Below, in pieces: positions 2,933 through 45,722 of a stretch of 64,000 nucleotides of DNA. The notes under the pieces are model-generated. The model saw only the letters and a list, made by a program, of their open reading frames with translations. It searched no databases and was not told the origin of the DNA. Position 1 is the first letter of the stretch; every line of letters starts with the position of its first letter. The position numbers and the translations under genes were made by a program. The stretch is from a virus (lineage: Duplodnaviria > Caudoviricetes). The stretch spans positions 160,001-224,000 of IMG/VR virus record IMGVR_UViG_3300022555_000003. One strand, written 5' to 3'.

Positions 2933-3363
2933 GCATCTAAAAATTTATTTAGCTTCCCACCACACATTGCCATACAAACAGATTCTTCTTGACCTAATAC
3001 CCAAAATTCATCAATGAAATCATATACAACATTACAATACCAAGGACTTTTTAATTTGTCTAAAGATAATATCACTCGGCCTGTATATAACGTGTTAACT
3101 TGAAATGGTTTCACCCTAAGTTCATCTGGGGTATTTTTAAAAAACTGTTCATACCCCAAACTAGTTAATCTAAACGATTTAGTTGATGAGTGCTTCCACC
3201 ATAATTTATTAGCTTCTTTAAGTGTTTTTGGTGAATAAGCAACTACAACAGTTGTATTTTTTATATCAAAATACTGTTTAGTAATTTCATCGCGGTTCAT
3301 ATTTAGACACTTGTTCGATAGTTGGACAATTTTTCTTTTCCATATATGGACCAACATATCCAT
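2905..3363 (-). CDS. hypothetical protein (true start probably MNRDEI near 3300)
   Basis: ORF tiles the operon; no motif recognised. Confidence 0.6.
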   Translation of the reverse strand: MDMLVHIWKRKIVQLSNKCLNMNRDEITKQYFDIKNTTVVVAYSPKTLKEANKLWWKHSSTKSFRLTSLGYEQFFKNTPDELRVKPFQVNTLYTGRVILSLDKLKSPWYCNVVYDFIDEFWVLGQEESVCMAMCGGKLNKFLDAWELSIWNI

Positions 3364-3754
3364 ACTTATCTAGTGTTATCCGTTTTGGGCAGAACATATA
3401 AATCCAACCCTTCTTGCCATAATTTACAACATAGAATCCAGCTGCCCGCTTTGATTTAGAATTGGTTTCTGTTGTGTATAGTGGTAATCGCCTACAAACA
3501 TCAAACTCTCTATTGTATGGAAAAGTTTTTGTTGGATAACCAAATACATCATTCTTATTATCAATATTAATTTTAAATCTCTGCCAGTCTATTTCGTATG
3601 TTTTTTCAACAGACGATAAATCCTTAAATTTTTCAAGTAATTTACCTCTGTTAAACTCAACTCCATGTTGCTTAACATTTATATTTCCAATCTTCTTTTC
3701 ATTTTGTAAAATAATCCAAAAATCGTCTGAAATATTTTTAGCTGTTAATTTCAT
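3287..3754 (-). CDS. hypothetical protein
   Basis: 155-aa ORF overlapping both neighbours on the same strand. Confidence 0.7.
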   Translation of the reverse strand: MKLTAKNISDDFWIILQNEKKIGNINVKQHGVEFNRGKLLEKFKDLSSVEKTYEIDWQRFKINIDNKNDVFGYPTKTFPYNREFDVCRRLPLYTTETNSKSKRAAGFYVVNYGKKGWIYMFCPKRITLDKYGYVGPYMEKKNCPTIEQVSKYEPR

Positions 3755-3986
3755 CTATAACCCTTTTATCATTAAAGACAACAACTTCTTCAATCTGTTC
3801 TAATATAGCTTTATCTACGATTCCAACTTTCACATTATTTAGCACAATAATAACTGCTAGATACTTAGCATACAACTCAAGATAATTATTGTATTCTATT
3901 TCATTCCTAATAGATTTTCCAGCAAAAAATGATAGCGTCATTAATATTATCAATGGGACCGCAATAACAAAATATGTATATGTCAA
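3738..3986 (-). CDS. small membrane protein
   Basis: GGAG SD then TTG at 3986; hydrophobic N-terminal segment. Confidence 0.6.
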   Translation of the reverse strand: MTYTYFVIAVPLIILMTLSFFAGKSIRNEIEYNNYLELYAKYLAVIIVLNNVKVGIVDKAILEQIEEVVVFNDKRVIDEINS

Positions 3987-3996
3987 ATAAATCTCC

Positions 3997-4983
3997 TTAC
4001 TTGCATTGACCTGAAAGGATCCGACCAAATTCAGATGCCTGGTCACTTAACTTAACTAAATTGTGTTTGCCACAGAATTTTAAAAAATGTGTACCAATCA
4101 TTGCACGATCCAGAACTGAAATTTTTTCAATCGTTTCGTTTATTAATTGTCTAATTTCGGGAGGTTGAGCAGTTAGATCAATTAATGTCTTATTACGATT
4201 ATAATCATCTAAAACTTTGTGCTCAATATTATTGTGATCAACCCAACGTTGCATCATCAAATTAGTCCAAGCAAAACCTTGCTTGACATCATTAAATGCT
4301 TCCCGTAATCCAATTTTATTTTTAGAACTCTTTTCCCTTACTCCTGGATAAGCACTGAAAACGTGATCTGTTGAATCACCTCTAACAATTTTTTCAAACA
4401 ATGCAAACTTTGGATCGGGAATTTCTTTTGGCTGTTTCGTTTTCTTATCTAAAATCCTATTACCACGATAATCAAAGATGCCATCAACTGTAATTAATTC
4501 GCCAGTAATACCATTATACTGTTTTACATTTGATGCTAATAACTGAATAAAATCAGTATCGCTACTAATGATTACGTGATCATCATCTGGGTGAGTTTGA
4601 ACCCAGCCAGCAATTAAATCGTCTCCTTCCAATTGTTTATGCTGCAAAATAGTGCAGTTTGTTTTTTCATTCAAAAAATTTGTAAGTTGATCAAATCCTT
4701 CGAAAAATTGTTTAGATGTATCAACTTCTTCTTGCGTCTGAGCAGCCCTAGCTTCGATACGATGACGTTTATATGGAGGATAAAACTCTCTTCTCCAACT
4801 ACGACCTTCAAGACAAAATACAACATGATCGGCATTCTGTTCCCGCCAACATTTTGCAATGCTCGCTAAACTTGTATGAATAGAAAGACCTACTTGTTCT
4901 TCAATCGAGCTATTTTTATTACTGGCATGCATCATTCTAAAATACAGATTTGCCAAGTCCATTACAAGGTATGTCTTCTTCAT
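3997..4983 (-). CDS. rnh: T4-type RNase H / 5'-3' flap exonuclease
   Basis: N-terminal D (VMDLAN), YKRHR, LEGDDLIA, SSDTDFIQL, GDSTDHV (FEN/PIN acidic motifs). Confidence 0.88.
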   Translation of the reverse strand: MKKTYLVMDLANLYFRMMHASNKNSSIEEQVGLSIHTSLASIAKCWREQNADHVVFCLEGRSWRREFYPPYKRHRIEARAAQTQEEVDTSKQFFEGFDQLTNFLNEKTNCTILQHKQLEGDDLIAGWVQTHPDDDHVIISSDTDFIQLLASNVKQYNGITGELITVDGIFDYRGNRILDKKTKQPKEIPDPKFALFEKIVRGDSTDHVFSAYPGVREKSSKNKIGLREAFNDVKQGFAWTNLMMQRWVDHNNIEHKVLDDYNRNKTLIDLTAQPPEIRQLINETIEKISVLDRAMIGTHFLKFCGKHNLVKLSDQASEFGRILSGQCK

Positions 4984-31406: not shown

Positions 31407-31571
31407 TTATTTTCCTGTAATCTGCTTCACTAAATTTGAAAACATACTTCCAATGGCAGAAAATATCTGTTTAAAATTTGCTTTGTTGCTTTGAAAGAAA
31501 ATAACAATTTGCTTTGATACAGCCACAATTGCATTTTTAATACCTACTAAAATCTTTTTAACTATTGTCAT
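31407..31571 (-). CDS. 54-aa cationic amphipathic peptide
   Basis: Manual translation MTIVKKILVGIKNAIVAVSKQIVIFFQSNKANFKQIFSAIGSMFSNLVKQITGK; ATGA-coupled and fills the gap exactly. Confidence 0.6.
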   Translation of the reverse strand: MTIVKKILVGIKNAIVAVSKQIVIFFQSNKANFKQIFSAIGSMFSNLVKQITGK

Positions 31572-32224
31572 TGTATATTCCTTGCAAAATCAGCAAATTG
31601 TTTTGTGATTTTCGCTACTTCATCTTCTTTGGGTGCTTCTTTAACTACTTTCTTTCGAGTAAGTTGTCTAGTAACTGTGCCTGGTCCGCCGTTTAAAAAT
31701 CCATTGCCTCCACCCATACTGCCAGCAATTCCACCGCTTGATGTTCCACCACTCCCTGCGTCTTCACTTAAAAATTTAGCATCTAAGAGTGATAATAAAC
31801 CACTTATAGTATTAGATACTACAGTCTTAGATAACATTCTAACTGGATCAACAACATCCATATAATACTTATTAATAATAATTTGCTCTTGCTCTGCTCC
31901 GTTTGCACCAGCTTTAGGTGAATAAAAGTGTCTAAAATTCTTACTATTAGTACATAACTTTTCGATTTGCTTTACACCTTTATAGATATATTTACGTGAA
32001 TCCGTTGTATACATACCTTCTAACCAAAGTTCGCTTTTAGCAATGTAAAATCTAATATCACCATGTTCTATACTAATTCCAAATTTTTGACTTATATCTT
32101 CATGAAATATTACATCGTTTGATCTAGAATCACTTAGTGAAGGAAGTTTAACTGCGCCAGATTTGGTAATCCAACCAAACATTGTATAGTTTAAATTTCT
32201 AGAAAATACTTCTTTAATTAGCAT
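31568..32224 (-). CDS. hypothetical protein with Glu-leader and Gly/Ser-rich tail
   Basis: True start MLIKEV, 5 nt after GATAAATA (32230-32237); GWITKSG...H.D...IRF domain; EDAGSGGTSSGGIAG. Confidence 0.7.
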   Translation of the reverse strand: MLIKEVFSRNLNYTMFGWITKSGAVKLPSLSDSRSNDVIFHEDISQKFGISIEHGDIRFYIAKSELWLEGMYTTDSRKYIYKGVKQIEKLCTNSKNFRHFYSPKAGANGAEQEQIIINKYYMDVVDPVRMLSKTVVSNTISGLLSLLDAKFLSEDAGSGGTSSGGIAGSMGGGNGFLNGGPGTVTRQLTRKKVVKEAPKEDEVAKITKQFADFARNIQ

Positions 32225-32228
32225 AATA

Positions 32229-32723
32229 TTATTTATCCAATTCTCCATATCCTTGTGCTTGCCCTTCATCACTGGTTGTAAAAATACTATTACTTCTTCT
32301 AGCTTCAATTCCAAGTAGTTTCAAATTCTTATCATAAGCAATTGTATTATCAATATCACTATCGACGGTCCGTCTTTTTTCAATACTAGCTGATTCAAAA
32401 ATTACTCCAGATGGTCTTGTGCCACGAAATAATACTTTTTTTATTGTATCAAAAATATTAAGATAGTTACTAGCTTCTTTTTGTATTTTCTTTATTACAT
32501 CTACTTCTTTCTTTATAACTTGTTTAACCTGAGATAATTCTTTCAAATAATGTCCTTTTGCAGTCTGATGAATGTTTTTAACGGCATCGTTTGTTGTTTG
32601 TTTAATGTTATAATCAGAATCTTTAATCCAATAATTCAGTTTTTCCAGATGTGATTCGTCTTCCCACTTGTTTATTAAAACAGTACGATGGCTCTTTGCT
32701 TCCATTAAGTCAATTATTTTCAT
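32229..32723 (-). pseudogene. ART-array copy 1, 3'-truncated (lacks catalytic-Glu segment)
   Basis: LFRG and RSNSIFTTS present; ends GYGELDK* inside the next gene's late promoter. Confidence 0.75.
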
Positions 32724-33568
32724 TTAGTGTATCCTAATTTTCTTCTAATTGTTTGAAATTCAAAAAAGTACTTTTCTAATATAGCAAAATATGCTCCATG
32801 TATTAGTACTTCATTTTCTGATTTTAAGGCGGCTGGAAAATTCTTATTAGTAACTCTAAATTTTTTCTGAAAGCTATCTAAATCTGGTTCTCTATTTAAT
32901 AATTCTCTAGTATATTTAAGTACTGGAGATTCGGGGAATTTCAATGATATCCATTTTAAATTATCTACTATAGTACTTTTTTCTGTAAAACCTAATATTT
33001 CATATAGTTTAAATTTATAGTCAATCAAAGTAGATTTTAATTTCCAAACAAGATTATTATATTCTTTATCAGCCCTTTCAATCTCGCTGTCAATTACATT
33101 TGTTATTTCTTTTGGATAATCTTTTACATAACTACCCATATGATCTAAAATCAAATCATTGTGTATTCTGCTCCAACTAAATACTGCTGTATTTTTTGGA
33201 ATGATGACATATGATATTTGTCCGTAGTCTGAAGAAGAATCCAAACTAGATGTGGTAAAAATACTATTACTTCTAAGAGCTTTAATACCAAGTAACGTCA
33301 TCAAATTATCATATCTTAGAGTATCCGATTTGCTACTATCCATTGGACGTCTATTTTCAATACTTTCACCTTCAAAAATTACTCCAGTTTTTTTAGTTCC
33401 TCTATATAATACTCTATGTGTTGCATCAAATACTTTAAGATATTTACTGCATTCTTTCTGTATTTTAATAGTAATGTCAGTATTTATTTGTGCGCCGTCT
33501 TCCCACTTGTTTATTAAAATTACACGGGTTGAATGTTTCTTTGCTTCCATTAAGTCAGTTATTTTCAT
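32720..33568 (-). CDS. putative R-S-E ADP-ribosyltransferase, copy 2 (ExE)
   Basis: LYRG, RSNSIFTTSS, SENEVLIHG; leader MKITDLMEA. Confidence 0.75.
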   Translation of the reverse strand: MKITDLMEAKKHSTRVILINKWEDGAQINTDITIKIQKECSKYLKVFDATHRVLYRGTKKTGVIFEGESIENRRPMDSSKSDTLRYDNLMTLLGIKALRSNSIFTTSSLDSSSDYGQISYVIIPKNTAVFSWSRIHNDLILDHMGSYVKDYPKEITNVIDSEIERADKEYNNLVWKLKSTLIDYKFKLYEILGFTEKSTIVDNLKWISLKFPESPVLKYTRELLNREPDLDSFQKKFRVTNKNFPAALKSENEVLIHGAYFAILEKYFFEFQTIRRKLGYTK

Positions 33569-34554
33569 TTAAGTAATCCTAACTTAGTTCTGAGTGGTTG
33601 AAGGTGTACGAAGAAGTCCTCTTCAGCTACAGCAAAATATTCTCCGTGTATTAATACTTCATGCTTGGATCTGATTGCTGCTGAAAAATAAGAATCATAA
33701 ACTCCATACTTTTTTTGAAATTCTTTAAGATTATATGTTGGATTTATTAGTTCTTCTGAATATTTAAGTATTGGAGATTTTGGTTTATTTTTAGAGATCC
33801 AACTAACTAACCCTTTGGCATCTTCGATAGTTTCTTGATACAACAAATCTCTCAATGAATTATTATATTCTGTCATTTCTTCAATTTTATTTTCGTCTTT
33901 TAGTTTCGATATAATAGCGTCACTTTTATCAAGCTCTTTTTTAATCACATCTTTTAATTTACTAGAATACCTAGGGCCTAATAATGCTCTTCTATGTGTA
34001 GAATCTAACACCAAATCAGAATATATAAAGCTCCAACTAAACACTGCTGTATTCTTAGGTATAATTACATATACTTTGCTTCCATAATCACTTGCCTGAT
34101 TTGAACTTCCTGTTGTAAATGTACTATTACAACGTAAGGCTTCAATACCAAGTAACTTCAATTTTTCATCATATTCTTTTGACAAAAGATTACTACTGTC
34201 CTTAGGATGACGATTTATTGGACTCGTTGCTTCAAATATAGATCCTCCGTTAGTAGTACCTCTGAATAAAAAATTGTTGATTTGATCATATACTTTAATG
34301 TAATTACTACATTCTTTTTGTATTCTCTTAGCAATAGCAGTCTCTGAATTAATAATTGGTTTTATTTTGGATAACTCTTTCTCACAATCTTTTAGTAGTT
34401 TTTTAAACTTTGTCTTTTCTTTTGGATCTTTTTCTTGTTTAATAAGAGATGTGATATCGACGATATCTTTATTTACATCTAATCCATCTACCCATTTAGT
34501 CAGTAAAGTTTTTCGTTTACTAACAGATTCTAATAGTAAGTCATTTATTTTCAT
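33565..34554 (-). CDS. putative R-S-E ADP-ribosyltransferase, copy 3
   Basis: LFRG, RCNSTFTTGS, SKHEVLIHG; leader MKINDLLLES. Confidence 0.75.
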   Translation of the reverse strand: MKINDLLLESVSKRKTLLTKWVDGLDVNKDIVDITSLIKQEKDPKEKTKFKKLLKDCEKELSKIKPIINSETAIAKRIQKECSNYIKVYDQINNFLFRGTTNGGSIFEATSPINRHPKDSSNLLSKEYDEKLKLLGIEALRCNSTFTTGSSNQASDYGSKVYVIIPKNTAVFSWSFIYSDLVLDSTHRRALLGPRYSSKLKDVIKKELDKSDAIISKLKDENKIEEMTEYNNSLRDLLYQETIEDAKGLVSWISKNKPKSPILKYSEELINPTYNLKEFQKKYGVYDSYFSAAIRSKHEVLIHGEYFAVAEEDFFVHLQPLRTKLGLLK

Positions 34555-35534
34555 AATAATTTTTTAACCATTGGCCAAAATAGATGATTAATGGCAATAT
34601 ATTTTCCGTGTATTAATACTTCGTTACGAGACTGTAATGCCGCTGGCATATCACTATTAGTGATCTGATATTTCTTTTGAAATTTATCTAAATTAATTGT
34701 AATTGTATATTCAATGAGATCATGAAGTATTGTCGAGTTTGGAAAGTTTTTCTCTATAAAATCTAAAGTGTAAAATCGTGTATCAACTTGTTTAAACTTA
34801 ATAATATCTTTTAAAATTAGAATATATCTATACATGACTCTGTGTTTGTCGGGGAGATAGTAATCATCGTCATTTATCAGGTGTTGATATTTTGATAATT
34901 CTAGTCTAGATTTGTTAATTAACTCAATTGGTAAATCATACAAATCATCAAACGAATTACTTGTTAGTACTATATCGTCGGACGTCAATGAGCATGAAAA
35001 GTCTGCTGAATCTTCAGGAATAATTATATATGTATTCCCATATATTTGTACAGCCTGTTTCGAACTACTAGTAAAAATACTATTCAATCGAAGCGCTTTA
35101 ATACCTAATTGTGTTGCACATCCATCAAACAACTTACTCATTATAGCACTACTATCAAGTGGTCTTCTTTCTGACAGAGATTCTGATTCAAATGCAGTTA
35201 AGTTTCCATTGATGCCACGATATAACCATCTTTGTTCTTGTTTAAAAATATTTACATACTTATTGCAACTAGATTTAACTATCTGTTGAACATTATTTAT
35301 AACATCCCTATAGTTAGTCATGTCATTAATTATTTTTTCTTCCTCATCAATGACATTCTCATAATATCCAATACTCTCTGTATCAATGGGTTCACTAGAC
35401 TTAATTAAATCTATTTTATTTCTGAGGCGGTCAATACGCTCTATACAAGATGTATAAACAATAATATCAAAATTACCAGTCAATGAGACTTTCTTAGGAG
35501 CTCCATCTTCATTGATAATCTCTGAGAAACGCAT
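34551..35534 (-). CDS. putative R-S-E ADP-ribosyltransferase, copy 4
   Basis: LYRG, RLNSIFTSSS, SRNEVLIHG; leader MRFSEIINE. Confidence 0.75.
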   Translation of the reverse strand: MRFSEIINEDGAPKKVSLTGNFDIIVYTSCIERIDRLRNKIDLIKSSEPIDTESIGYYENVIDEEEKIINDMTNYRDVINNVQQIVKSSCNKYVNIFKQEQRWLYRGINGNLTAFESESLSERRPLDSSAIMSKLFDGCATQLGIKALRLNSIFTSSSKQAVQIYGNTYIIIPEDSADFSCSLTSDDIVLTSNSFDDLYDLPIELINKSRLELSKYQHLINDDDYYLPDKHRVMYRYILILKDIIKFKQVDTRFYTLDFIEKNFPNSTILHDLIEYTITINLDKFQKKYQITNSDMPAALQSRNEVLIHGKYIAINHLFWPMVKKLL

Positions 35535-35537
35535 TAG

Positions 35538-35984
35538 TTAGGCCCTTGCTTTCTTAGTCATTGACCGCATTTTCCACGCCCATTTTTCGTGAGCAGCAAT
35601 ACGATCCTGTAAAAAGTTTTGTAGACCTAAATGATCACCAGCTTGAGCATAAGTTTCTTCTAATAGCTTAATCACAACATGATTGTTTTCTAATAGCTCT
35701 TCAATCATTAATTCAGCTCTAGGAACTAGTAATTGTTCACTAATTTCAGTTAGTTCAGCAAAACGTGCTAAACTTCCTGGAGCATATATGTCAAGTGCTC
35801 TGATATGTTCAGCAATATCATCACATGATTCAAACACATCCTGATATAATTCACCTAGGAATGCATGATAAGAATGAAAATGGGGACCTTCTAGGTTCCA
35901 ATGGAAGTATTGAGCTTTTAGTTGGAATACATAAGATGTAGCTAATAAACGTTTGATCTTTTCTTCGAGATGTAGGATAGTCAT
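35538..35984 (-). CDS. dps: Dps-family mini-ferritin
   Basis: KAQYFHWNLEGPHFHSYH...DDIAEHIRAL...HEKWAW; GATAAATA 5 nt upstream. Confidence 0.92.
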   Translation of the reverse strand: MTILHLEEKIKRLLATSYVFQLKAQYFHWNLEGPHFHSYHAFLGELYQDVFESCDDIAEHIRALDIYAPGSLARFAELTEISEQLLVPRAELMIEELLENNHVVIKLLEETYAQAGDHLGLQNFLQDRIAAHEKWAWKMRSMTKKARA

Positions 35985-36011
35985 ATAACTATTTATCTAC
36001 ATGTTAAAATA

Positions 36012-36786
36012 TCATTCACCAAATAATTTTATTTTAATATCTGGCCACACACTAATGTGAATACCATAATATTCGCCATGTATTAATATTTCATTGCCTG
36101 ATTTTAATGCACTAACGAAGTTTGTTGAATCAATTTGATATTTTGCTTGAAACTTATTAATATTTGCTGGAACGTCTTTGGCATCATCTAATATAATATC
36201 ATCGTGAGTTTTACTCCAACTAAAATCAGCGGAGTCTTTTGGTATAATTATATATCTTGTTCTAGTTGTATTCTGACCAAAATTTAAATAGGCAGAGATT
36301 TGGCTAGCATCTCCGCTAGTAAAAATACTATTTTTTCGTTGAGCTTTAACACCCAATTTATCTAACTGCCTGTCAAACAAAATAGACATATAATTATCAC
36401 TATCAACAGGAATTCTGTCAATGAGACTCCTGTCTTGATATAATGCTCCACGATTTTTTCTGGCACTATATAAACATTCGTCGGTTTGTTTAAACACACT
36501 TAAATATTTTTTACACTCAGCGTTAATTTGCGGAATAAAATTGTCAAATTGTGCTAAGTAATCAGTAAATTGCTTCATCAACATTGTATATTTTACTGTT
36601 TCTTCATCAATATAATCCTGTGTTGATTTATATTCGGGGTTACTTTTATCAATCTTAATAAGATATATTTTTAATTCTTTTATATTGTGATCAATTTGAA
36701 GAATTTTTTTTATTTAAACTAGCTTGTATTTTGGGAACTAAAATTTGTTGATGTTTAGTTTCAGTTAAAAATTCATGTGATCTCAT
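36012..36786 (-). pseudogene. ART-array copy 5, frameshifted in an A8 run (or sequencing error)
   Basis: MRSHEFLTE start at 36786 goes out of frame at the T8 tract near 36704-36711; removing one base joins it to the 190-aa ORF with LYSAR, RKNSIFTSG, GNEILIHG. Confidence 0.7.
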
Positions 36787-37781
36787 TTTAATAATTTACC
36801 TTTGAGTGCTTCCCAAACTGAACTATGCAAGCCATAAAACTCACCATGTATTAGTATTTCATTTCTGGTACTAAGTGCTTTATCAAAATTAGTTGTATCA
36901 ATTTTAAATATGTCTATAAACTTCTTTATATCAACAGTTGGTTTATATTTAAGAAGTTTTTTGGATATTTTCAGTATTGGCGAATTAGGAAATATTTGTT
37001 TAATACGTCTTAAATTAAAATCCATGTTTGTATAATTTTGCTTGTCAAGATTATATAATATCTTGTGATATTCATTACTGGTCCAGTAATGATCATCATC
37101 GTCATTATTATCAATATCATCTGTTACTTTTCCCAACTCATCGCTTATTATTTTTTTAAATGGACTATCTACATAAGTTGGAATTATTGATGAGTTGCTT
37201 AGTATTAGATCGTCGTTGGATTCACTCCAGCTAAAATCAGCTGTACTTTTAGGTATAATAACATACTTTGTTTGGCCATAGCCACCAGCATGTGATGAGT
37301 CAGACGAAGTAAAAATACTATTTCCTCTGCGTGCTTTAACACCCATTTCTTGTAATATTTTGTCAAATGATATAGTAATTCCTTGGTCGCTGTCTCTTAC
37401 TTGTCTATTTTCAACACTACGTCCAACATATAATCCACCATGCATTCTACGGCCACTAAACAAACACTTATCTGTACGTTTGTAAGCGTCTAGATAAGTT
37501 TTACAGTCGTTACGAATTTGAGGAATGAATGGTGTAAATAATTTTAAATAGTCTTGGCATCTCTTTTTAATTCTTGCATACTTAGCTTCTGCAGCATCTA
37601 ATTCAATTTTAACTTGTTCAGCTGATGAAGCATTAAAATCTTTACTGGTGTTGTTTACAAGATTATTATATCTTTTCTTTAAGTAATAAACAGTATGTCG
37701 GTTTAATGTAACATTATTTATTAACTCAGTATTTATAGGTGTTACTAAAACTTCCATATCTATTACTTCATTGATTTTCAT
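36783..37781 (-). CDS. putative ADP-ribosyltransferase, copy 6 (FSGR variant)
   Basis: LFSGRR, RGNSIFTSSDS, TRNEILIHG; leader MKINEVIDME. Confidence 0.7.
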   Translation of the reverse strand: MKINEVIDMEVLVTPINTELINNVTLNRHTVYYLKKRYNNLVNNTSKDFNASSAEQVKIELDAAEAKYARIKKRCQDYLKLFTPFIPQIRNDCKTYLDAYKRTDKCLFSGRRMHGGLYVGRSVENRQVRDSDQGITISFDKILQEMGVKARRGNSIFTSSDSSHAGGYGQTKYVIIPKSTADFSWSESNDDLILSNSSIIPTYVDSPFKKIISDELGKVTDDIDNNDDDDHYWTSNEYHKILYNLDKQNYTNMDFNLRRIKQIFPNSPILKISKKLLKYKPTVDIKKFIDIFKIDTTNFDKALSTRNEILIHGEFYGLHSSVWEALKGKLLK

Positions 37782-38752
37782 TGGAATAACTTCCCTTTAA
37801 CTATGTCCCATATACTGTTATGTATCCCATAATATTTACCATTTATTAGTATTTCGTGATTTGTGTTTAGTACCGCTTCCATTGAGGTTGTATTAATCTT
37901 GAACTTTTCTTGAAACTTGTTGAGATCAATTTTTGGTTTATATTTAAGTAATTGATCTGCTATACTATTAACTGGAGAGTCAGGATATTTATTTTTGACA
38001 TAAGCTAAATCAGTTTTAATGTTATAAAAATTTTGTCTATATAACCATTCTAAGATTTGTAAGTATTTGTAATGTTGTCCAATATCAGAATCACGTTCAA
38101 TTCTTTCTTTTTCATCTTTAAGAATCTTTTCCATATTATCTGGCAATGGTCTGTAAGTTAATTTCAATGAATAACTACTTAGTACTAGATCATCTCTTGT
38201 TTCGCTCCAACTAAAGTTAATGTCATTGAATGGAATTATTATGTATCTATCAGCGCCATATTCTGCAGCATGACATTCACTTGACGTTGTAAAAATACTA
38301 TTTCCTCTACGTGCTTTAACACCAAGTTTTTTTAATAAACTATCAAATTTGGTTGTAACAGAGGCCATACTGTCTTTTGGTCTTCGTTTTTCTAAGCTTT
38401 CATCCTGATACAATGCTCCATGAAATCTACGTCCACTGTATAATACTTGGCCTGTTCTGTTAAATAATTCTAGATAATGACTACAGTTATTTTGAATTAT
38501 TGGTCCGAATTTTGAAAATTCTTTCATTGAATCAGCAAATCTTTTTTGAGTTTTTATAACATTATCTTTAGCTTTTTGCAACTCTTTTTTAAATTTAGCA
38601 GCTTGTTCTGGAGTTGTACTTTCCAACTTGTTATGTTCAATACTTTTTACTTTGTTAATGCCTACTTGCAATGTAGCTTGTAACTCAAGCTGAACACTAT
38701 GTATTAAAACTTTTTCATTTGCGCTTTCAACAATAAATTCGTGTGACCGCAT
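37778..38752 (-). CDS. putative ADP-ribosyltransferase, copy 7 (YSGR variant)
   Basis: LYSGRR, RGNSIFTTSS, TNHEILING; leader MRSHEFIVES. Confidence 0.7.
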   Translation of the reverse strand: MRSHEFIVESANEKVLIHSVQLELQATLQVGINKVKSIEHNKLESTTPEQAAKFKKELQKAKDNVIKTQKRFADSMKEFSKFGPIIQNNCSHYLELFNRTGQVLYSGRRFHGALYQDESLEKRRPKDSMASVTTKFDSLLKKLGVKARRGNSIFTTSSECHAAEYGADRYIIIPFNDINFSWSETRDDLVLSSYSLKLTYRPLPDNMEKILKDEKERIERDSDIGQHYKYLQILEWLYRQNFYNIKTDLAYVKNKYPDSPVNSIADQLLKYKPKIDLNKFQEKFKINTTSMEAVLNTNHEILINGKYYGIHNSIWDIVKGKLFQ

Positions 38753-39801
38753 TACATATCTCCTTTAAACAAATCAAATAAATCAATTTGAACCGCAATG
38801 TATTTTCCATGTATTAGTACTTCGTGCTTTTTAATTATAGCAGTTTGTAAGTTGGTGTCCATTGGTTTATATTTTTTCTTAAATTTATTCAAATTGACTC
38901 GGCTATATTCAATACTGTTTAATGTAAGTAGTAATGATTCAGGAAAATAATAATTTAGAAATTTTCGACCAGTGAAAGAAATAATTCTGTTTCCAGTAGT
39001 TCGAACATCTAGTAGATATTTATAATAACATTGTAGAATTGATAATTTTTCATTATATTCATTATCGTTTGATTTTGATATTAACTCTTTCTCTTCTTCA
39101 ATTTTAGTCTGTATTTCATCTAATTCATTGTCTAAGGCGGCAATCACTTCGGGTGAAAAAGACATTAGTCCATTAAATGAATCACTATGTAATATTAGAT
39201 CCTTTCCAGCCTCTGACCAGGAATAATCAGCTGTATCTTCAGGAAAAATAACATAAATGTTATTACCATATGATTTAGCTTGGCTTATACTACTTGATGT
39301 AAAAATACTGTTAGAACGCAGAGCTTTAATACCTAATTCTTGTAAACAACTATCATATAATATAGTAGAATCTATATTGCTATCTTTTGGAGGTCGATTA
39401 TTAGGACTGTCGGATTCAAATGCAGGAAATGAATTTGACTGACCACGATATAACATTCCACTATGCTTGAAGATTCCAATATATTCACTACATCTTTTTT
39501 TAATTATTGATATCAATAATTTTATGTTTTCTTTTAAATTTTCTTCTTTGTATTGATTTTTTTGAAGTTCAGCAATTCTATCAGTTAATACTTTATATTC
39601 TTTTTTAATTTTAAAAGATTCGTCAGATGTAATTTCTGGATTAAACCATATTTTTTCATGACATTCTGCTTGTTTCTTTTTTAAATCAATAATTACATAA
39701 GTAACCAATGGATCAACAGAAATGTCTACCAATGGATCAACAGAAATGTCTACCAATGGAGTTTTAACTGGTTTTATGTTCTCTACTTCAAATAGTCTCA
39801 T
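38752..39801 (-). CDS. putative R-S-E ADP-ribosyltransferase, copy 8
   Basis: Likely start MRLFEVE at 39801; LYRG, RSNSIFTSSS, KKHEVLIHG. Confidence 0.75.
   Translation of the reverse strand: MRLFEVENIKPVKTPLVDISVDPLVDISVDPLVTYVIIDLKKKQAECHEKIWFNPEITSDESFKIKKEYKVLTDRIAELQKNQYKEENLKENIKLLISIIKKRCSEYIGIFKHSGMLYRGQSNSFPAFESDSPNNRPPKDSNIDSTILYDSCLQELGIKALRSNSIFTSSSISQAKSYGNNIYVIFPEDTADYSWSEAGKDLILHSDSFNGLMSFSPEVIAALDNELDEIQTKIEEEKELISKSNDNEYNEKLSILQCYYKYLLDVRTTGNRIISFTGRKFLNYYFPESLLLTLNSIEYSRVNLNKFKKKYKPMDTNLQTAIIKKHEVLIHGKYIAVQIDLFDLFKGDM
39704..39760. repeat. 24-bp perfect tandem duplication in ART copy 8 N-terminus
   Basis: ACCAATGGATCAACAGAAATGTCT twice plus a partial copy; encodes PLVDISVDPLVDISVDPLV. 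Confidence 0.9.
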
Positions 39802-39802
39802 A

Positions 39803-40816
39803 TTAGTTTTTCTTTTCTGATATAGTAAGTAACGGTTCAAAATTTGAATTAGGTACAAATTCGTGTTTACGTATAACTGTCTTAGCTAAAAGCTCAAGTT
39901 CATCTTTAAATTTGTTCCATACTAGCACGAATGGAGCATTAACATCAGTTTTTAAATCTTTTAATACTGCTTGAAAGCCTGGATCTTTCTTTTTCAATTT
40001 TGGTGCATATTTTCGATAAGTTTCAATGAATAATCTGGCAAGTTCATTGATTGTTATTGGTTTCTTATTACGTAAATCATTTACTCTATCTAAGAAGTGT
40101 GTTGAAAAATGAACATCCATTCCAGCTAGCTCCCAAAATTGATTTAAATACTTCTCCAGAGAATGCAATTCATCATTAGTAATTTCTTCCGTTATTTTCT
40201 TTTTGGTACCTGACGGGGCAACTGCCATAGCGTCCTTTAAGGTTTTGAAATAACTCATCCCATTAACTTTTAACTTTGATATTTGAACAGCTCTTTTTGG
40301 ATCACCAGCTGCTGCTGAAATATAAAATGCTTTTTTATCATCTTCTGCTGCTGCTTTTCTCAATGCTGAAGCACTTCCAAGTCTGGGACTTTGTACGTGA
40401 GTAATTGATTTAAATGTATACTTACGTCCTAACTTGTCTGGAACTCCATTATAATCTTTAAGAAGTTTACCACTCCACCCATTCCAATCTTCAATATCAG
40501 TTACATATATTAAATCAGTTACTTCAGGATGATGTTGATTAATATAAAAAGCTAATGTAATAACTAATACTTCAGGAATGATGTGTCCTTTAAGGGTTGG
40601 ATCAAATGCTTCCATCCAAGCTTTTTTAACTTCGTAAGTAAGTGGATTATCTTTATTATGAGTAGTAGGACTAGTACCAACAAACCATAAATTATTGTCA
40701 GCTGAATGTTTAACAACTTCAAATAATTTAACATGTCCCATATGTACTCCGTTAAATCGACCAAAGCACATAGCGGCTGTTGTATTACTTGCTTCAAATA
40801 ATTGTTTGAGGTTCAT
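39803..40816 (-). CDS. HIGH-superfamily nucleotidyltransferase (cytidylyltransferase-like) fused to a second domain
   Basis: CFGRFNGVHMGH, NPLTYEVK, SASALR; C-terminal domain after KITEE with FSTHFLDRVND...KTVIRK. Confidence 0.75.
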   Translation of the reverse strand: MNLKQLFEASNTTAAMCFGRFNGVHMGHVKLFEVVKHSADNNLWFVGTSPTTHNKDNPLTYEVKKAWMEAFDPTLKGHIIPEVLVITLAFYINQHHPEVTDLIYVTDIEDWNGWSGKLLKDYNGVPDKLGRKYTFKSITHVQSPRLGSASALRKAAAEDDKKAFYISAAAGDPKRAVQISKLKVNGMSYFKTLKDAMAVAPSGTKKKITEEITNDELHSLEKYLNQFWELAGMDVHFSTHFLDRVNDLRNKKPITINELARLFIETYRKYAPKLKKKDPGFQAVLKDLKTDVNAPFVLVWNKFKDELELLAKTVIRKHEFVPNSNFEPLLTISEKKN

Positions 40817-41929
40817 TTAATGTTTTCCTAAGTTTGCTGCTGAGAATTTAAATCTATCAACTAACTTTACTGGGCCTGTATTGGTATGTACAATGAATCC
40901 TTCTTGACCAGTTTCATCACCTATTCCAGCATGTAAATCAGTAGTTGATTTATCAAGTTCATTTATTATCTTAAATTTTGCAACTGTAAGTAAACTAAAC
41001 ACAGTCATTACAGCACTAAATGCACTTTGATTTTTTTTAATATGTTCTAATATTCTAGGAGTTGCTGGTCCAGATTGAGTTTCTAACCATTTAATAAACT
41101 GTTGATCTAAATTAATTAATGATTTACTATATATAACATGTTGATTAACGAATGTTTTCAATAATGTCAAAAATGATTTAATCTTTGCTTCAGCTAAATC
41201 AGACTGATTAAATAATTGATCAATTGATGGACCAAACTTAGCAACTAATTGTGTAGCTTTTTTAAGTTCATCAGGCTCAGTAATAGTTACATTAGGAGCT
41301 AATTGGTCTGACATTATTAATAAGCCATTTACTTGATTTCTTACAACACTTTGTAAATCAGTATCAGTAACGTGATGTCCTGAAGTTGCTCCAGCATCTA
41401 ACTTACTATGCACTATAATTCCAACTTTGCTACGTCCTATTAACTTACCGAGTTCAGTATCAACGTTAACTGAATAAGTAACTGTATTTGGAGTGAAGAC
41501 AAACTTATCGCCTTGTTTTGGAGGTTGAGCTGTATACATTAAGTCTCCAAAAAGATATCCCGAAAAGCTTGTCGGAATACTCTTTTCAAAAATTGGCCAC
41601 AGTGAAGAATATAAAGCAAGTAAATGTTGATTGGTGCCACCTTTTCTAGCTGATAATATTTGTTCAAGTTCTTGTATACTATGTGGAGGAGTACTGATCA
41701 TATACTTATCACCCATAGCAAAACCAACTTTATCTCGTCCCCAGAATATAGCAGGCTTTCCGTCTGGCTTTAAACTTACTGTTTGTGGTTGTTTAATAGC
41801 TTGTCGTAATGCATTGATAGAGTCTGTTATCGCTGCTGATCCAATGAATGCAGCGTCTTCAACATGTTCAATTCGAGCTTTTTTAAGATTATATGTCTCT
41901 TCTTCTGTAATAAATTCTGATGATCGCAT
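40817..41929 (-). CDS. polynucleotide-ligase-like nucleotidyltransferase with Glu-leader
   Basis: Motif I KPDG, motif III-like GDLMY, motif IV EGFIV, motif V VKLV; starts MRSSEFITEE; GATAAATA at 41935-41942. Confidence 0.65.
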   Translation of the reverse strand: MRSSEFITEEETYNLKKARIEHVEDAAFIGSAAITDSINALRQAIKQPQTVSLKPDGKPAIFWGRDKVGFAMGDKYMISTPPHSIQELEQILSARKGGTNQHLLALYSSLWPIFEKSIPTSFSGYLFGDLMYTAQPPKQGDKFVFTPNTVTYSVNVDTELGKLIGRSKVGIIVHSKLDAGATSGHHVTDTDLQSVVRNQVNGLLIMSDQLAPNVTITEPDELKKATQLVAKFGPSIDQLFNQSDLAEAKIKSFLTLLKTFVNQHVIYSKSLINLDQQFIKWLETQSGPATPRILEHIKKNQSAFSAVMTVFSLLTVAKFKIINELDKSTTDLHAGIGDETGQEGFIVHTNTGPVKLVDRFKFSAANLGKH

Positions 41930-41955
41930 ATCAGTATTTATCTGAATTAATAATA

Positions 41956-42687
41956 TTATATTAATCGTTCAGCAAGCATATCTTCGTATATTTCTTTTCT
42001 AATAGCAATATATGTTCCGTGTACTAGTATTTCATGGCCAGATTTTAATGCAGCATCCAGATCAGTCTGGTCAAGTTTAAATACTTGTTGAAATGCTTTC
42101 AGATCCAAAATATTTAAATTTGAACTAGGTTGTAATACTATATCCCGATGTGTTTGAGACCAACTAAAATCATCAGAATTAAACGGAAAGATAACATATA
42201 CTCTACCATATGAGATAGCTTGGCTTACACTAGTTGTAGTAAAAATACTATTTGATCTCAACGCTTTAATGCCTAGTTTGGTTGCAAATTCATCATATTC
42301 TTCTTGAATTACCATGTAACTGTCTTTTGGTTCTCTATCAAAAGGTGAATAAGCTTCGAATGCTGCTGGCTTCTTACTTCTAATTCCACGATATAATACT
42401 CTATCATTCTTTTTAAATGCATCATAAAATTTACTACATTCTGATTTAATTCTATTAGATATTTGTTCGTAAGTTTTTATTATGTCAGTATTTGAATTAA
42501 TCTTTTCTAATTCATCATTGGCGCGTGCAAGCTTCTCTTGAAATAATTTTTTTCGTGATTCACTAGTAGTCTGATTTATAATTCTAACAAAAAATTGTAT
42601 GTTAAGTTCGATATTTTCTTTAGCAATTGGATCGTAATCTGCTAGTAAAGTAACTACATTTGATTTTGATATTTCGTTTAGTCTCAT
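41956..42687 (-). CDS. putative R-S-E ADP-ribosyltransferase, copy 9 (short form)
   Basis: LYRG, RSNSIFTTTS, SGHEILVHG; leader MRLNEIS. Confidence 0.75.
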   Translation of the reverse strand: MRLNEISKSNVVTLLADYDPIAKENIELNIQFFVRIINQTTSESRKKLFQEKLARANDELEKINSNTDIIKTYEQISNRIKSECSKFYDAFKKNDRVLYRGIRSKKPAAFEAYSPFDREPKDSYMVIQEEYDEFATKLGIKALRSNSIFTTTSVSQAISYGRVYVIFPFNSDDFSWSQTHRDIVLQPSSNLNILDLKAFQQVFKLDQTDLDAALKSGHEILVHGTYIAIRKEIYEDMLAERLI

Positions 42688-43415
42688 AATAGTTTCTCAA
42701 TGATCATATCTTCATATAAATCATGCCTAACTGCAATATACTTACCATGTATTAGTACTTCATGTTCAGAAAATAATGCCTCAGGTAAATTAGTCTGATC
42801 AAGTTTATATGTCTGTTGAAACTCTTGTACGTCTTTAAAATGTAATGGCTTCTCAGCGAATAATACAAGATCCTTTTTTGCATGAGACCAGCTAAAATCA
42901 GCTGAACTCTTAGGAAATACGACGTATAGATCGCCATAAATTCTAGCTTGATCTTCGTCTGACGATGTGAAAATACTATTTGATCTTTGTGCTATAATAC
43001 CAAGTTGCTCAGCAAATCTATCAAATTTTAATGTATTAACTAATCCGCTGTCCTTAGGTCGTCTGTCAGTTGGACTATTCGATTCGAATGCTGCTGGTTT
43101 GTTATGTCTGATGCCTCTATATAATACAGCATTACTTCGTTTGAATATACTATAAAATTTACTACATTCATTTTTAATCTTATCAGCTAATTCTTTTAAT
43201 ATATCATTTGACTTATTATATTCTTCAATCTTTCTTAATTGTTCTTTGGCGTGGTCTAACTCAACCTGAAATATTGCTTTACGTTCAGGAGTAACATAAT
43301 CTCTATTTAATTGATCAGTATAATACTGAATGTCTAAATTTATGCTGTTAAGTTTAGTAGCGTTATACTTATCAATTAATGTCGTTATGTTAGTAGATAT
43401 TTCATTCAATCTCAT
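42684..43415 (-). CDS. putative R-S-E ADP-ribosyltransferase, copy 10 (short form, ExE)
   Basis: LYRG, RSNSIFTSSD, SEHEVLIHG; leader MRLNEIS. Confidence 0.75.
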   Translation of the reverse strand: MRLNEISTNITTLIDKYNATKLNSINLDIQYYTDQLNRDYVTPERKAIFQVELDHAKEQLRKIEEYNKSNDILKELADKIKNECSKFYSIFKRSNAVLYRGIRHNKPAAFESNSPTDRRPKDSGLVNTLKFDRFAEQLGIIAQRSNSIFTSSDEDQARIYGDLYVVFPKSSADFSWSHAKKDLVLFAEKPLHFKDVQEFQQTYKLDQTNLPEALFSEHEVLIHGKYIAVRHDLYEDMIIEKLL

Positions 43416-44140
43416 AATAGTTTCTCTTTTATCATATCTTCATATACTTGATATTTAATAGCAATATATCGTCCATGTATTAATACTTCATGTTCTGATT
43501 TTAATGCAGCATCCAGATCTGTTTTCTTTAATTTGTATATCTCTTGGAATGATTTTAAGTCCTTAAATCCAGCTTTATGTTCAAGATATAATATAATTTC
43601 TCGTCGAGATTCTGACCAGCTAAAATCAGCTGTATCTTTTGGGTATATGACAAATAGAATGCCATAATATCTAGCGTGACATTCACTCGAAATAGTGAAA
43701 ATACTATTTGATCTAAGTGCTTCAATTCCGAGTTCTTGAGCAAACTTATCAAATAATATTGTATTATTAACATCACTGTCCTTAGGTTCTCTATTTACTG
43801 GGCTCATTGATTCAAATGCTGGCGGATGTTTATATTTGTATCCTCTAAACAATACTTTATCACATTTCTTAAAGGCATTATAAAAGTCTCTACATTCAAC
43901 TTTAATTTTAGTAGCTAATTTTTCCAATGAACCTTCCGGAAGTGATTCCAGATATGTTAATTCTTCTAGTGCATCTTCTAAATATTGTTGAGTTATTTTT
44001 TTATGCTCTTCTGTTTGTGGCTGCCGCATAAGTTTTTTATAATATGATATTTGCGAATTAATTGAATTTCTCCTAATAGGATCAAAATTCGCCGGTAGTA
44101 ACAGTATTTTGTTTGAATCAATCATTTCATATAGACGCAT
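43412..44140 (-). CDS. putative R-S-E ADP-ribosyltransferase, copy 11 (short form, ExE)
   Basis: LFRG, RSNSIFTISS, SEHEVLIHG; leader MRLYEMI; GATAAATA at 44146-44153. Confidence 0.75.
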   Translation of the reverse strand: MRLYEMIDSNKILLLPANFDPIRRNSINSQISYYKKLMRQPQTEEHKKITQQYLEDALEELTYLESLPEGSLEKLATKIKVECRDFYNAFKKCDKVLFRGYKYKHPPAFESMSPVNREPKDSDVNNTILFDKFAQELGIEALRSNSIFTISSECHARYYGILFVIYPKDTADFSWSESRREIILYLEHKAGFKDLKSFQEIYKLKKTDLDAALKSEHEVLIHGRYIAIKYQVYEDMIKEKLL

Positions 44141-44158
44141 AGTAATATTTATCTAAGT

Positions 44159-44890
44159 TTATAGTAATTTTTTACTTACCATTTCGTTGTATATGTCGTC
44201 TATAATAGCAATATATCTACCATGAATTAATATTTCGTGACCTGATAATAAAGCTTTATCTAAACTAAGTTGATCAAGCATAAATTTTTGTTGAAATAAT
44301 TGGATTGATGTGCAACTATCTAACATGTAAGGAACTAATACTATATCAGAATATTTCATTGACCACGAAAAATCAGCTGTATCTTTTGGAAAGATATTAT
44401 ATAAATAATATCCATACTCTTTAGCTTGAGATTTTTGAGTAGTAGCGAAGATACTGTTTGACCTGAGTGCTCTAATTCCAAGCTGTTCAGCAAATGTATC
44501 AAATTTTATTGTGGCTATTTCATTACTATCCTTTGGCCGACGGCCTTCTATACTAGTTGATACAAATACTGGTGGTCTCTCATTTCTAATTCCTCTAAAT
44601 AATACCTTGTTTACTTTCTTACAAGCATTATAAAATTTACCACATTCATTTTTAACTTTATCGGCTATTTTTTTAATCTTTTCATCTATTTCTTTGGCAT
44701 CAATATCATTTAGAATATCTAGATTGTAGTCTATAGATTGTTGTAATGACTTTCTATCTTCTGGATCAGTTGAATCATTTTGTAATTTAATCAGATTAGC
44801 AATATTCTTCTCAGCACTCTCTTTTTCATCTAATCCTATTTCAGATAGTAACGAAATTATATTTTCATCAGACATTTCATATAGACGCAT
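44159..44890 (-). CDS. putative R-S-E ADP-ribosyltransferase, copy 12 (short form)
   Basis: LFRG, RSNSIFATT, SGHEILIHG; leader MRLYEMSDE; TATAAATA at 44896-44903. Confidence 0.75.
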   Translation of the reverse strand: MRLYEMSDENIISLLSEIGLDEKESAEKNIANLIKLQNDSTDPEDRKSLQQSIDYNLDILNDIDAKEIDEKIKKIADKVKNECGKFYNACKKVNKVLFRGIRNERPPVFVSTSIEGRRPKDSNEIATIKFDTFAEQLGIRALRSNSIFATTQKSQAKEYGYYLYNIFPKDTADFSWSMKYSDIVLVPYMLDSCTSIQLFQQKFMLDQLSLDKALLSGHEILIHGRYIAIIDDIYNEMVSKKLL

Positions 44891-44898
44891 AGTAATAT

Positions 44899-45662
44899 TT
44901 ATATAAGCCTATTATAATACCTGATCTAACAGCAATATATGTGCCTTTAATCCAAATTTCGTGTCCAGATAATAATGCTTCTTTTAAATTAGTATCTGAA
45001 TGTAATCCTAAAACCTTAACCATATTATTAATATTAAAATTAGTACGTAGTTTAAACTCTCCAAATTGCTTTTTAATTGGATGATTCAGGTAATCGACTC
45101 ATGTATATTTCTAGAAGATTACGTTGTTCAAGCACATTATTAATAATAGACAAATACATTCTATTAATAGTTCCATGGTAATTATCTTCAACTATTGAAG
45201 GATTACTTGTTGGATACTTATCTATATAATCTTTTAAAGCTTTAGTGAATTGACTAGTATAAGAGTATGCTCCATATTTAATTACTGAATCAAAATCAAA
45301 AACTAAGTCATCATCATTTTCACACCAAGTATAATGAAAACCATTTTTTGGATATATTTGAAATACTTCACCAAAATACTTTGCTAATTTATGTGAAGTA
45401 GTTGCATATATAGAATTTAGACGCCTAGCTTCAACACCAATACTATCAAGACCCCAATCTATTACTCTATATATTTCTGCATTAGATGTCTTTGGAATAC
45501 GATCAGTACTACTACTATCTATATAATAGTTATTCTCATCTCTGGAATGACCACGTGTTCCATGTAGTAATGGATGTTCAGGAACTTCTTTCAATACCTT
45601 AAGATAATCAGAACACTCAGTAGCTATTTTTTCTTCTAATGTGATATTTCAAATAAGCGCAT
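44899..45662 (-). pseudogene. ART-array copy 13, at least two frameshifts
   Basis: MRLFEI start at 45662 is out of frame with LEEKIATECSDY; a second shift near 45076-45100 separates the core (LLHG, RLNSIYATTS) from LLSGHEIWIKG. Confidence 0.7.
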
Positions 45663-45667
45663 AGCAG

Positions 45668-45722
45668 TATTTATCACATCTTAAATGACTATAGGTGGTA
45701 GAGTTTAATTCTACCACCTATA
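45668..45722 (-). promoter_or_regulatory. terminator hairpin followed by the late promoter opening the ART array
   Basis: 13-bp stem TATAGGTGGTAGA/TCTACCACCTATA (45690-45722); GATAAATA at 45668-45675. Confidence 0.7.

Follow-up and report, generated by a model that had tools for sequence, protein, structure and literature searches.

Variation two residues before the catalytic glutamate in a phage array of ADP-ribosyltransferase-like paralogs: change of acceptor or ordinary turnover?

In the stretch of viral DNA analysed here (64,000 nucleotides, bases 160001-224000 of the record IMGVR_UViG_3300022555_000003; referred to below as the window), a single protein family has 13 members between positions 32229 and 45594, all on the minus strand, and 11 of them are intact. 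The copies, which are numbered by ascending coordinate as in a preliminary description of the same DNA, resemble ADP-ribosyltransferases (ARTs), and they differ from one another at the residue two places before the catalytic Glu (position −2). The question raised by this locus is whether that residue records a change of acceptor chemistry from copy to copy, or whether it merely turns over at a loosely constrained site. On balance it is probable that the array is a head-packaged family of ART fold and R-S-E-type active site that evolves by birth and death, and that the variation at −2 is not evidence of a switch in chemistry. The source record comprises 242,080 bp with inverted terminal repeats and about 31% guanine plus cytosine; it is described as a freshwater jumbo phage and is estimated to be 74% complete.

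First of all, the paralogy of the genes is far beyond chance. Among the 11 intact cores 22 alignment columns are invariant, the within-genome matches to the family profile have E-values down to 1e-101, and the paralogs share 35-55% protein identity, with synonymous sites saturated. Most of the array members directly follow one another, the stop codon of one overlapping the start codon of the next, and about 17 copies are found in the genome, that is, the 13 of the array and four in a second cluster. Decayed copies stand at both ends of the array (copies 1 and 13). Contigs of four sequencing runs from four studies, which are public freshwater and lake metagenomes of 2016-2020 and some of which may be the source sample, cover window positions 32200-45700 with zero base differences or indels; because these contigs are identical, the array sequence, including the broken copies, is reproducible. 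They contain no variants at the active-site codons, and hence they give no population information. None of the runs listed for the stretch is of RNA.

Among the libraries scanned, the sole family matched by these proteins is PHROG 11975, whose function is given as unknown. A profile search of 1.84 billion representatives returned 4028 clusters at E ≤ 0.001, of which 264 reached E ≤ 1e-30; the ESM Atlas clusters that match the family are 96-100% viral, and in related IMG/VR contigs 3-7 copies often stand next to one another. Some metagenomic relatives (P0020 with 2645 amino acids, P0029, P0012 and P0017) are multi-module proteins with 2-8 matched profile stretches each. Megablast of the array against the phage collection gave no match, and tblastn found only Agrobacterium phage Atu_ph07.

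The preliminary description had called the copies ART-like, and this is borne out by both fold and motifs. The AlphaFold model of the copy-10 core has a mean predicted local distance difference test score (pLDDT) of 92.6; in a second-look structural search, 49 of its 50 best PDB neighbours belong to the ART superfamily, and an exhaustive structural comparison likewise returned almost only chains of that superfamily. The neighbours include BC2332 (Z 7.2 over 119 residues), Arr (Z 5.8 over 88 residues), DarT and KptA/Tpt1 (Z about 4.0) and pertussis-type and PltA-type chains (Z 2.7-2.9), all within the range below 8 in which, as the tool warns, a match may reflect merely a common arrangement; diphtheria, cholix and pertussis toxins, PARPs, OspC3, CteC and TccC3 were also among them. 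In spite of the low Z-scores, the consistency of this list, obtained with a model, is hard to explain otherwise than by relatedness to ARTs. The two best neighbours, BC2332-like/DUF3841 (PDB 2aua) and Arr, are minimal ART cores with 9-10% identity to the family, and Arr, a member of the His-type ART clade, acts on a small molecule. The BC2332-like proteins form a family (SCOP d.166.1.6) within the ADP-ribosylation superfamily (PMC3000352). A shape search of the ESM Atlas led to DUF3841 (template-modelling score, TM, 0.53), ART-PolyVal (TM 0.44) and Tse2 ART clusters. Foldseek against the PDB returned nothing at E ≤ 0.001 for the copy-10 core model or for the full-length model of copy 3, and the Pfam models of DUF3841 and DUF2441 (PF12952 and PF10386) had no match in the genome; of the three Pfam models searched there, these two and Peptidase_S77, the controls were silent for two, so that absence is not implied.

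In the copy-10 model the Arg motif lies on strand 1, the NSIFTTS-type motif forms the end of a strand that leads into a helix, and another strand begins with the invariant Glu. The same order, namely the β1 Arg, the S-T-S-like strand and the Glu at a strand start, is found in the R-S-E toxins of the C2, C3, iota and cholera type. When a 118-sequence family profile, from which the insert columns had been removed, was aligned by hhalign with an eight-sequence alignment of the T4 proteins ModA and ModB, the three motifs came into register: LYRG on LYRG, IFTTS on the SFTTS of ModB, and GxE on ExE. The score was 22.4; 40 block shuffles gave 13.7 ± 2.6, and not one of them scored as high. Against a single ModA or ModB sequence alone, the comparison was not significant. 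As far as models can tell, membership of the array family in the ART superfamily is thus very probable, and catalysis dependent on nicotinamide adenine dinucleotide (NAD+) is less certain than this membership.

ModA and ModB (R-S-E clade, PF26816) are likewise small phage ARTs, of about 200 amino acids. They share with the family the L-[YW]-R-G motif at β1, the S-F-T-T-S of ModB that matches S-I-F-T-T-S here, and the hydrophobic residues followed by Gly behind the catalytic Glu. The differences are that the Mod proteins have ExE where the array family has a GxE consensus, that the Pfam Mod model gives no match, and that the array family possesses the extra invariants R-x-P-x-D-S and A-x-R-x-N-S, a leader and helical hairpin, and often a four-helix insert. 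The Mod proteins are expressed after infection, and packaging is not known for them.

Conservation was counted over 210 non-redundant family units (about 23% mean column identity), of which 186 cover the Glu region. The β1 position is Arg in 193 units, Ser in 10 and His in 6, with Arg in 8 of the 11 intact window copies; the catalytic Glu is kept in 182 of the 186 units and in all 11 intact copies. R40, D44, S45, D54, R66, N68, S69 and D105 are also near-invariant, and the S-T-S equivalent reads F-[TVCA]-[TS]-[SG] before a helix, the middle hydroxyl residue being nearly always kept. Position −2 is different in character: over the 186 units it is G in 86, E in 29, K in 19, R in 12, N in 9 and S in 7 (Gly 46%, Glu 16%). 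That is to say, ExE is a minority state and Gly is the default; the ExE pair of the Arg-specific ARTs (Alt/VIP2, C2, CT, Mod) occurs in 3 of the 11 window copies and in 29 of the 186 units of the family. The residues listed for the window by the preliminary description are all present, with E in copies 2, 10 and 11, and K, R, G, R, N, K, G and G in copies 3-9 and 12.

A Gly at −2 takes the place of the residue on which transfer to Arg depends in canonical toxins, and the absence of the first Glu would be irrelevant if the substrates of the family were nucleic acids, phosphate ends or small molecules, or if it simply hydrolysed NAD+. Such substrates would suit the nearest structures, which are Arr (rifampin), DarT (single-stranded DNA), KptA/Tpt1 (RNA 2′-phosphate) and BC2332, and the three invariant Arg together with Asn-Ser would suit phosphate binding. 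Moreover, one paralog carries a fused Zeta-toxin-like P-loop kinase, as does gp53 of Atu_ph07, and a ligase-like DUF6267 gene and a nucleotidyltransferase gene lie inside the array. However, the structural scores are low and favour small folds generally, the only signal at the sequence level leads to ModA and ModB, which modify proteins, and no KptA-type or DarT-type motif was identified; nor does the array contain a macrodomain or NADAR partner, for which the whole genome was not searched. A substrate other than protein is, on these grounds, unlikely.

The preliminary description had taken the −2 residue as a read-out of acceptor chemistry, with the ExE copies modifying Arg, the K, R, G and N copies modifying other residues or nucleic acids, and copies 5-7 altered in NAD binding or deprived of it. 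In toxins of the C2/C3/CT type, EXE accompanies Arg as acceptor and QXE accompanies Asn, Gln or Cys, and the iota toxin mutants E378A, E378D and E378Q have no transferase activity (PMC3000352). The published rule contrasts E with Q and is silent on G, K, R and N. There are points in the family that speak for the read-out: in the hhalign alignment the −2 column falls opposite the first E of the ModA/ModB ExE; the 11 copies show five different residues at −2, beside nearly fixed positions 0, +1 and +3; and the residue is kept with a relative from another phage in two cases, K in copy 8 and P0003, and R in copy 4 and P0025, which suggests some constraint at −2 in places.

A classical specificity determinant is conserved within subfamilies and different between them. 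For this test the units were clustered at three identity thresholds, and the mutual information between column and cluster was normalised by the column entropy. Among the variable core columns, −2 ranked 75 of 82, 84 of 84 and 86 of 89 for association with subfamily, while the columns that do track subfamilies are 33 (second strand), 92, 95, 226 and 228. Copies 9-12 make up a single clade of the tree (Shimodaira–Hasegawa-like approximate likelihood ratio test, SH-aLRT, 98) in which copies 10 and 11 are sisters, and because they are sisters their EHE counts as one inherited change; copies 2 and 3 together with three metagenomic relatives read E, K, R, G and G at −2. The toxin ExE/QxE rule concerns the ADP-ribosylating turn-turn (ARTT) loop, and since the equivalent position in the array family is mostly Gly, is weakly tied to subfamilies and owes its EHE to one event, the C2/C3-type contrast of E and Q is not transferable to it. 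With Gly at −2 in so many members and strong conservation elsewhere, the family, judged from its alignment, evidently does not follow the ExE mechanism of the toxins. The subfamily test weakens the inference of acceptor chemistry rather than settling it; the variation at −2 looks like ordinary turnover at a loosely constrained position and not like a proven acceptor switch, and the use of this residue as a read-out, which the preliminary description proposed, is not supported. Altogether, it is improbable that −2 sets the acceptor.

Copies 5-7 do read YSAR, FSGR and YSGR, as the preliminary description had it, where the other copies read [YF]RG; that is, Ser stands at the β1 Arg site and a new Arg follows two residues later. 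They form a clade (SH-aLRT 99) with P0015, a metagenomic sequence from another phage that reads L-Y-S-G-R, so that the supposed sub-clade is real. The second half of the proposal, lost NAD binding, is unlikely in view of the sequences: copies 5-7 and P0015 retain all other family invariants, whereas in a degenerate member (locus L007) the Arg of R-x-P-x-D-S, the N-S pair and the Glu are lost together. Because the other invariants are kept and P0015 shares the shift, the site looks rewired rather than lost. On a strand, a residue points to the same side as the one two places away, and the shifted Arg may plausibly be a displaced yet functional NAD contact. A third state of β1 is His, which is found in copy 13 and in two of the four second-cluster copies (W-H-G and Y-H-G); E stands at −2 in two of the four. 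As a separate observation, among the His-type units the four with an aligned C-terminal part (two second-cluster and two metagenomic ones) all show E-[IV]-Y after the Glu; Tyr at alignment column 222 occurs in about 20% of the family overall, and a coupling with His at column 23 is possible.

If not at −2, differences of target have to be sought elsewhere, and it is in their accessory parts that the paralogs differ most. The full-length model of copy 3 (pLDDT 90.6) consists of a poorly ordered leader, a long N-terminal helical hairpin, the ART-like core and a four-helix bundle (residues 195-274). The bundle is inserted behind the fifth core strand and two short helices, just ahead of the catalytic-Glu strand, and we take this site in the model as the likely counterpart of the ARTT loop of toxins. 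The insert is present in six copies and absent from the short copies 9-12 and the core-only copy 5. It is more likely that the choice of target resides in the helical hairpin, in the presence of the insert (long versus short forms) and in the columns that track subfamilies. A structural search with the full-length copy 3 model was set aside: generic four-helix bundles matching the insert dominate it, and it is uninformative on function.

As for the way in which such proteins would reach the host, the strongest evidence comes from a cultured relative. In Atu_ph07, gp53-gp63 (AUZ94865-AUZ94875) are members of the family in a tandem array: gp54-57 and gp59-63, nine genes in all, match the family hidden Markov model with E-values of 1e-30 to 1e-5, gp58 matches at 0.007, and gp53 is matched by Foldseek (E 6.9e-7; down to 1e-13 over the set). 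The genes are arranged back to back, have a common leader of their own, M-[RK]-W-x-Q-L-[TN]-E, and include one Zeta-like kinase fusion (gp53), as does the present genome, in which the first second-cluster copy has an N-terminal Zeta-toxin/AAA_33 P-loop kinase fused on. They differ in that identity is about 28%, all are annotated as hypothetical, the host is another one, and the genome is of 490 kb with T4-like head genes. In purified Atu_ph07 virions, electrospray ionisation tandem mass spectrometry detected all of gp53-gp65 with 3-31 unique peptides (PMC6102473, Supplementary Table S5), the gene numbers being mapped here by molecular weight and by two anchors, coding sequence 49 (histidine kinase) and gp70 (primase/helicase). 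A gp21-like protease is also present in that phage (PMC6102473, Table S3).

In the present genome, a leader of the form M-[KR]-[ILF]-x-[ED]-hydrophobic opens about 22 of the 289 open reading frames (ORFs) of at least 100 amino acids, against a chance expectation of roughly 0.7 ORFs as estimated from typical amino-acid frequencies. Its carriers are 11 array copies, the DUF6267 protein, two second-cluster copies and several other proteins, non-family ones included; leader-bearing starts on the minus strand of the window are, for example, 41929, 25398 and 23953. One such leader, M-R-S-S-E-F-I-T-E-E, resembles the leader M-K-T-Y-Q-E-F-I-A-E of T4 IPII/IPIII, which was verified in the T4 record. 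In T4, the prohead protease gp21 cuts behind L/I-x-E, the N-terminal 10 residues of IPIII are enough to direct a protein to the capsid, and Alt, from which an N-terminal propeptide of 7 residues is removed, passes into the host by ejection (PMC9026906). By analogy, the leader of the array looks like a capsid-targeting or propeptide signal. The likeness to Alt consists in an ART-type enzyme in the head with a short propeptide ending in L/I-x-E; it is the Atu_ph07 homologues only that were detected in virions, and T4 has one Alt gene versus the approximately 17 family copies of this genome. Similarity to Alt in sequence was not found, no search aimed at it having been made. Virion association is a fact for the homologues, and from it we infer packaging in the present phage; a packaged set of Alt-like effectors is the best reading of the analogy.

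That the members are non-catalytic internal head or scaffold-like proteins with an ART-derived fold, whose motif differences are neutral drift, would fit the abundance of the Atu_ph07 homologues in virions, the many copies per genome including truncated and frameshifted ones, and the fact that no ART sequence model matches, but it is very improbable, since about ten polar residues (R, R, D, S, D, R, N, S, D and E) are near-invariant over 210 diverged members, which is an active-site pattern, and decayed members lose the invariant residues together.

The account of a head-packaged ART-fold family can then be put together in steps. The array would be a birth-and-death family of paralogs within the large, phage-specific PHROG 11975, built on a minimal ADP-ribosyltransferase fold; its active site would be laid out in R-S-E-like manner, with the β1 Arg, the [TVCA]-[TS]-[SG] strand and helix, and the invariant Glu opening a strand. 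The proteins most likely use NAD+. They would most likely be made late, be targeted to the prohead through the leader ending in L-x-E, and be delivered with the DNA, as T4 Alt is. The −2 position, with its consensus Gly, would change freely even between close relatives, and copies 5-7 would be a conserved subfamily with a rewired, not dead, site.

Several results weigh against this account. Pfam at E ≤ 1 matched no ART family in the 10 copies scanned, the ModA/B family PF26816 included, and sequence searches of the PDB with profiles of 12 and of 86 sequences returned helical-bundle noise and no ART. None of the structural Z-scores of the copy-10 core reaches 8, the three-motif layout is known from the order of strands and helices in a model and not from pocket geometry, and the S-T-S equivalent does not begin with a conserved Ser (T 115, V 38, C 32, A 25). 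Rapid diversifying selection, acting on a site of substrate contact, would likewise lead to a low association of −2 with subfamilies. With respect to packaging, copy 5 is without the leader; a search of the genome, in a record about 74% complete, for Peptidase_S77 (PF03420) gave no match, with a silent control, and tblastn with T4 gp20-24 against the same record found no head gene or protease. Besides these, NCBIfam and PADLOC scans of the copies gave no relevant family.

The layout of the locus is listed in Table 1. The array is interrupted only by a Dps/ferritin-like gene, a HxGH nucleotidyltransferase and a DUF6267 protein.

Table 1. Genes of the array, its interrupting genes and the second cluster. 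Positions are those of the window unless stated otherwise; motifs are given as β1 motif / S-T-S-like motif / residues −2 to 0 at the catalytic Glu; aa, amino acids.
Feature	Position	Strand	Form and length	Motifs	Remark
Copy 1	32229-32723	-	truncated paralog, 164 aa	LFRG / NSIFTTS	leader present; stops before the catalytic-Glu strand
Copy 2	32720-33568	-	long, 282 aa	LYRG / NSIFTTS / ENE	
Copy 3	33565-34554	-	long, 329 aa	LFRG / NSTFTTG / KHE	
Copy 4	34551-35534	-	long, 327 aa	LYRG / NSIFTSS / RNE	
Dps/ferritin-like gene	35538-35984	-			within array; Pfam PF00210, E 3.5e-18
Copy 5	36012-36584	-	core only, 190 aa	LYSAR / NSIFTSG / GNE	without leader; Ser-variant clade
Copy 6	36783-37781	-	long, 332 aa	LFSGR / NSIFTSS / RNE	Ser-variant clade
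Copy 7	37778-38752	-	long, 324 aa	LYSGR / NSIFTTS / NHE	Ser-variant clade
Copy 8	38752-39801	-	long	LYRG / NSIFTSS / KHE	likely start ATG 39801, giving leader MRLFEV
HxGH nucleotidyltransferase	39803-40816	-			cytidylyl/adenylyltransferase superfamily; extra C-terminal domain
DUF6267 protein	40817-41929	-		KPDG	N-terminal leader of the array (MRSSEF)
Copy 9	41956-42687	-	short, 243 aa	LYRG / NSIFTTT / GHE	
Copy 10	42684-43415	-	short, 243 aa	LYRG / NSIFTSS / EHE	sister of copy 11
Copy 11	43412-44140	-	short, 242 aa	LFRG / NSIFTIS / EHE	sister of copy 10
Copy 12	44159-44890	-	short, 243 aa	LFRG / NSIFATT / GHE	
Copy 13	~44919-45594	-	broken paralog	L-H-G / NSIYATT; C-terminal piece SGHEIWIKG	core and C-terminal piece in different frames
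Second cluster	genome 124477-127812		four family copies		66 kb upstream in the same genome
Second-cluster ORFs	704-2182, 2122-3093, 3102-3992, 3989-4846 of genome slice 123000-129000				

At the ends of the array, the 3′ part of copy 1 is overlapped by an unrelated ORF (31568-32314), and the upstream leader of copy 13 is cut off by a stop codon. At window positions 39704-39757, which encode a duplicated peptide V-D-I-S-V-D-P-L near the start of copy 8, the contigs of several runs break and short contigs of high depth cover the stretch; this is probably a short repeat that varies or confuses assembly. As to the interrupting genes, the nucleotidyltransferase was considered as an NMN (nicotinamide mononucleotide) adenylyltransferase and this was rejected, the model matches being far below the cut-offs. 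The KPDG motif of the DUF6267 protein is reminiscent of the KxDG lysine motif of ligases and capping enzymes.

A scan for sigma-70 promoters and terminators showed no enrichment. The Dps gene, copy 11 and copy 12 each have, some 5 nt ahead of the ATG, a motif [TA]A[GT]ATAAATA (35990-35999, 44146-44155 and 44896-44905), a variant, CAGATAAATA, precedes the DUF6267 gene (41935-41944), and motifs of this type have 11 matches in the window against 5.7 expected. The motif resembles the T4 late-promoter box, TATAAATA, but it stands unusually near the start codon.

Tentatively, and with rather less assurance than the account above, PHROG 11975 may be an undescribed ART clade whose jumbo-phage arrays supply up to about 17 injected effectors, with Arg, His or a shifted Arg at β1 and Gly at the ARTT position. 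If so, the mechanism of transfer or the class of substrate would differ from that of the classical ExE/QxE toxins. According to one survey, more than 40% of jumbo phages carry ARTs (PMC9503650), and the main texts of this survey and of another (PMC7824862) make no mention of the PHROG 11975 family or of the Atu_ph07 array. The family is large, with more than 4000 clusters at 50% identity that are almost exclusively viral; it is unnamed in Pfam, PHROGs and NCBIfam, it is virion-associated in one cultured phage, and it could be a major unrecognised class of injected effectors. The reading of acceptor chemistry is of modest interest and the wider system is of real interest. The ExE/QxE rule is to be used with caution, being unreadable in a family whose default residue at −2 is Gly, and the places in which to seek target specificity are the accessory helical modules and the subfamily-discriminating columns. 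In addition, the Arg, His and shifted-Arg states of β1, occurring within one family, would be a useful natural series on how ARTs hold NAD+.

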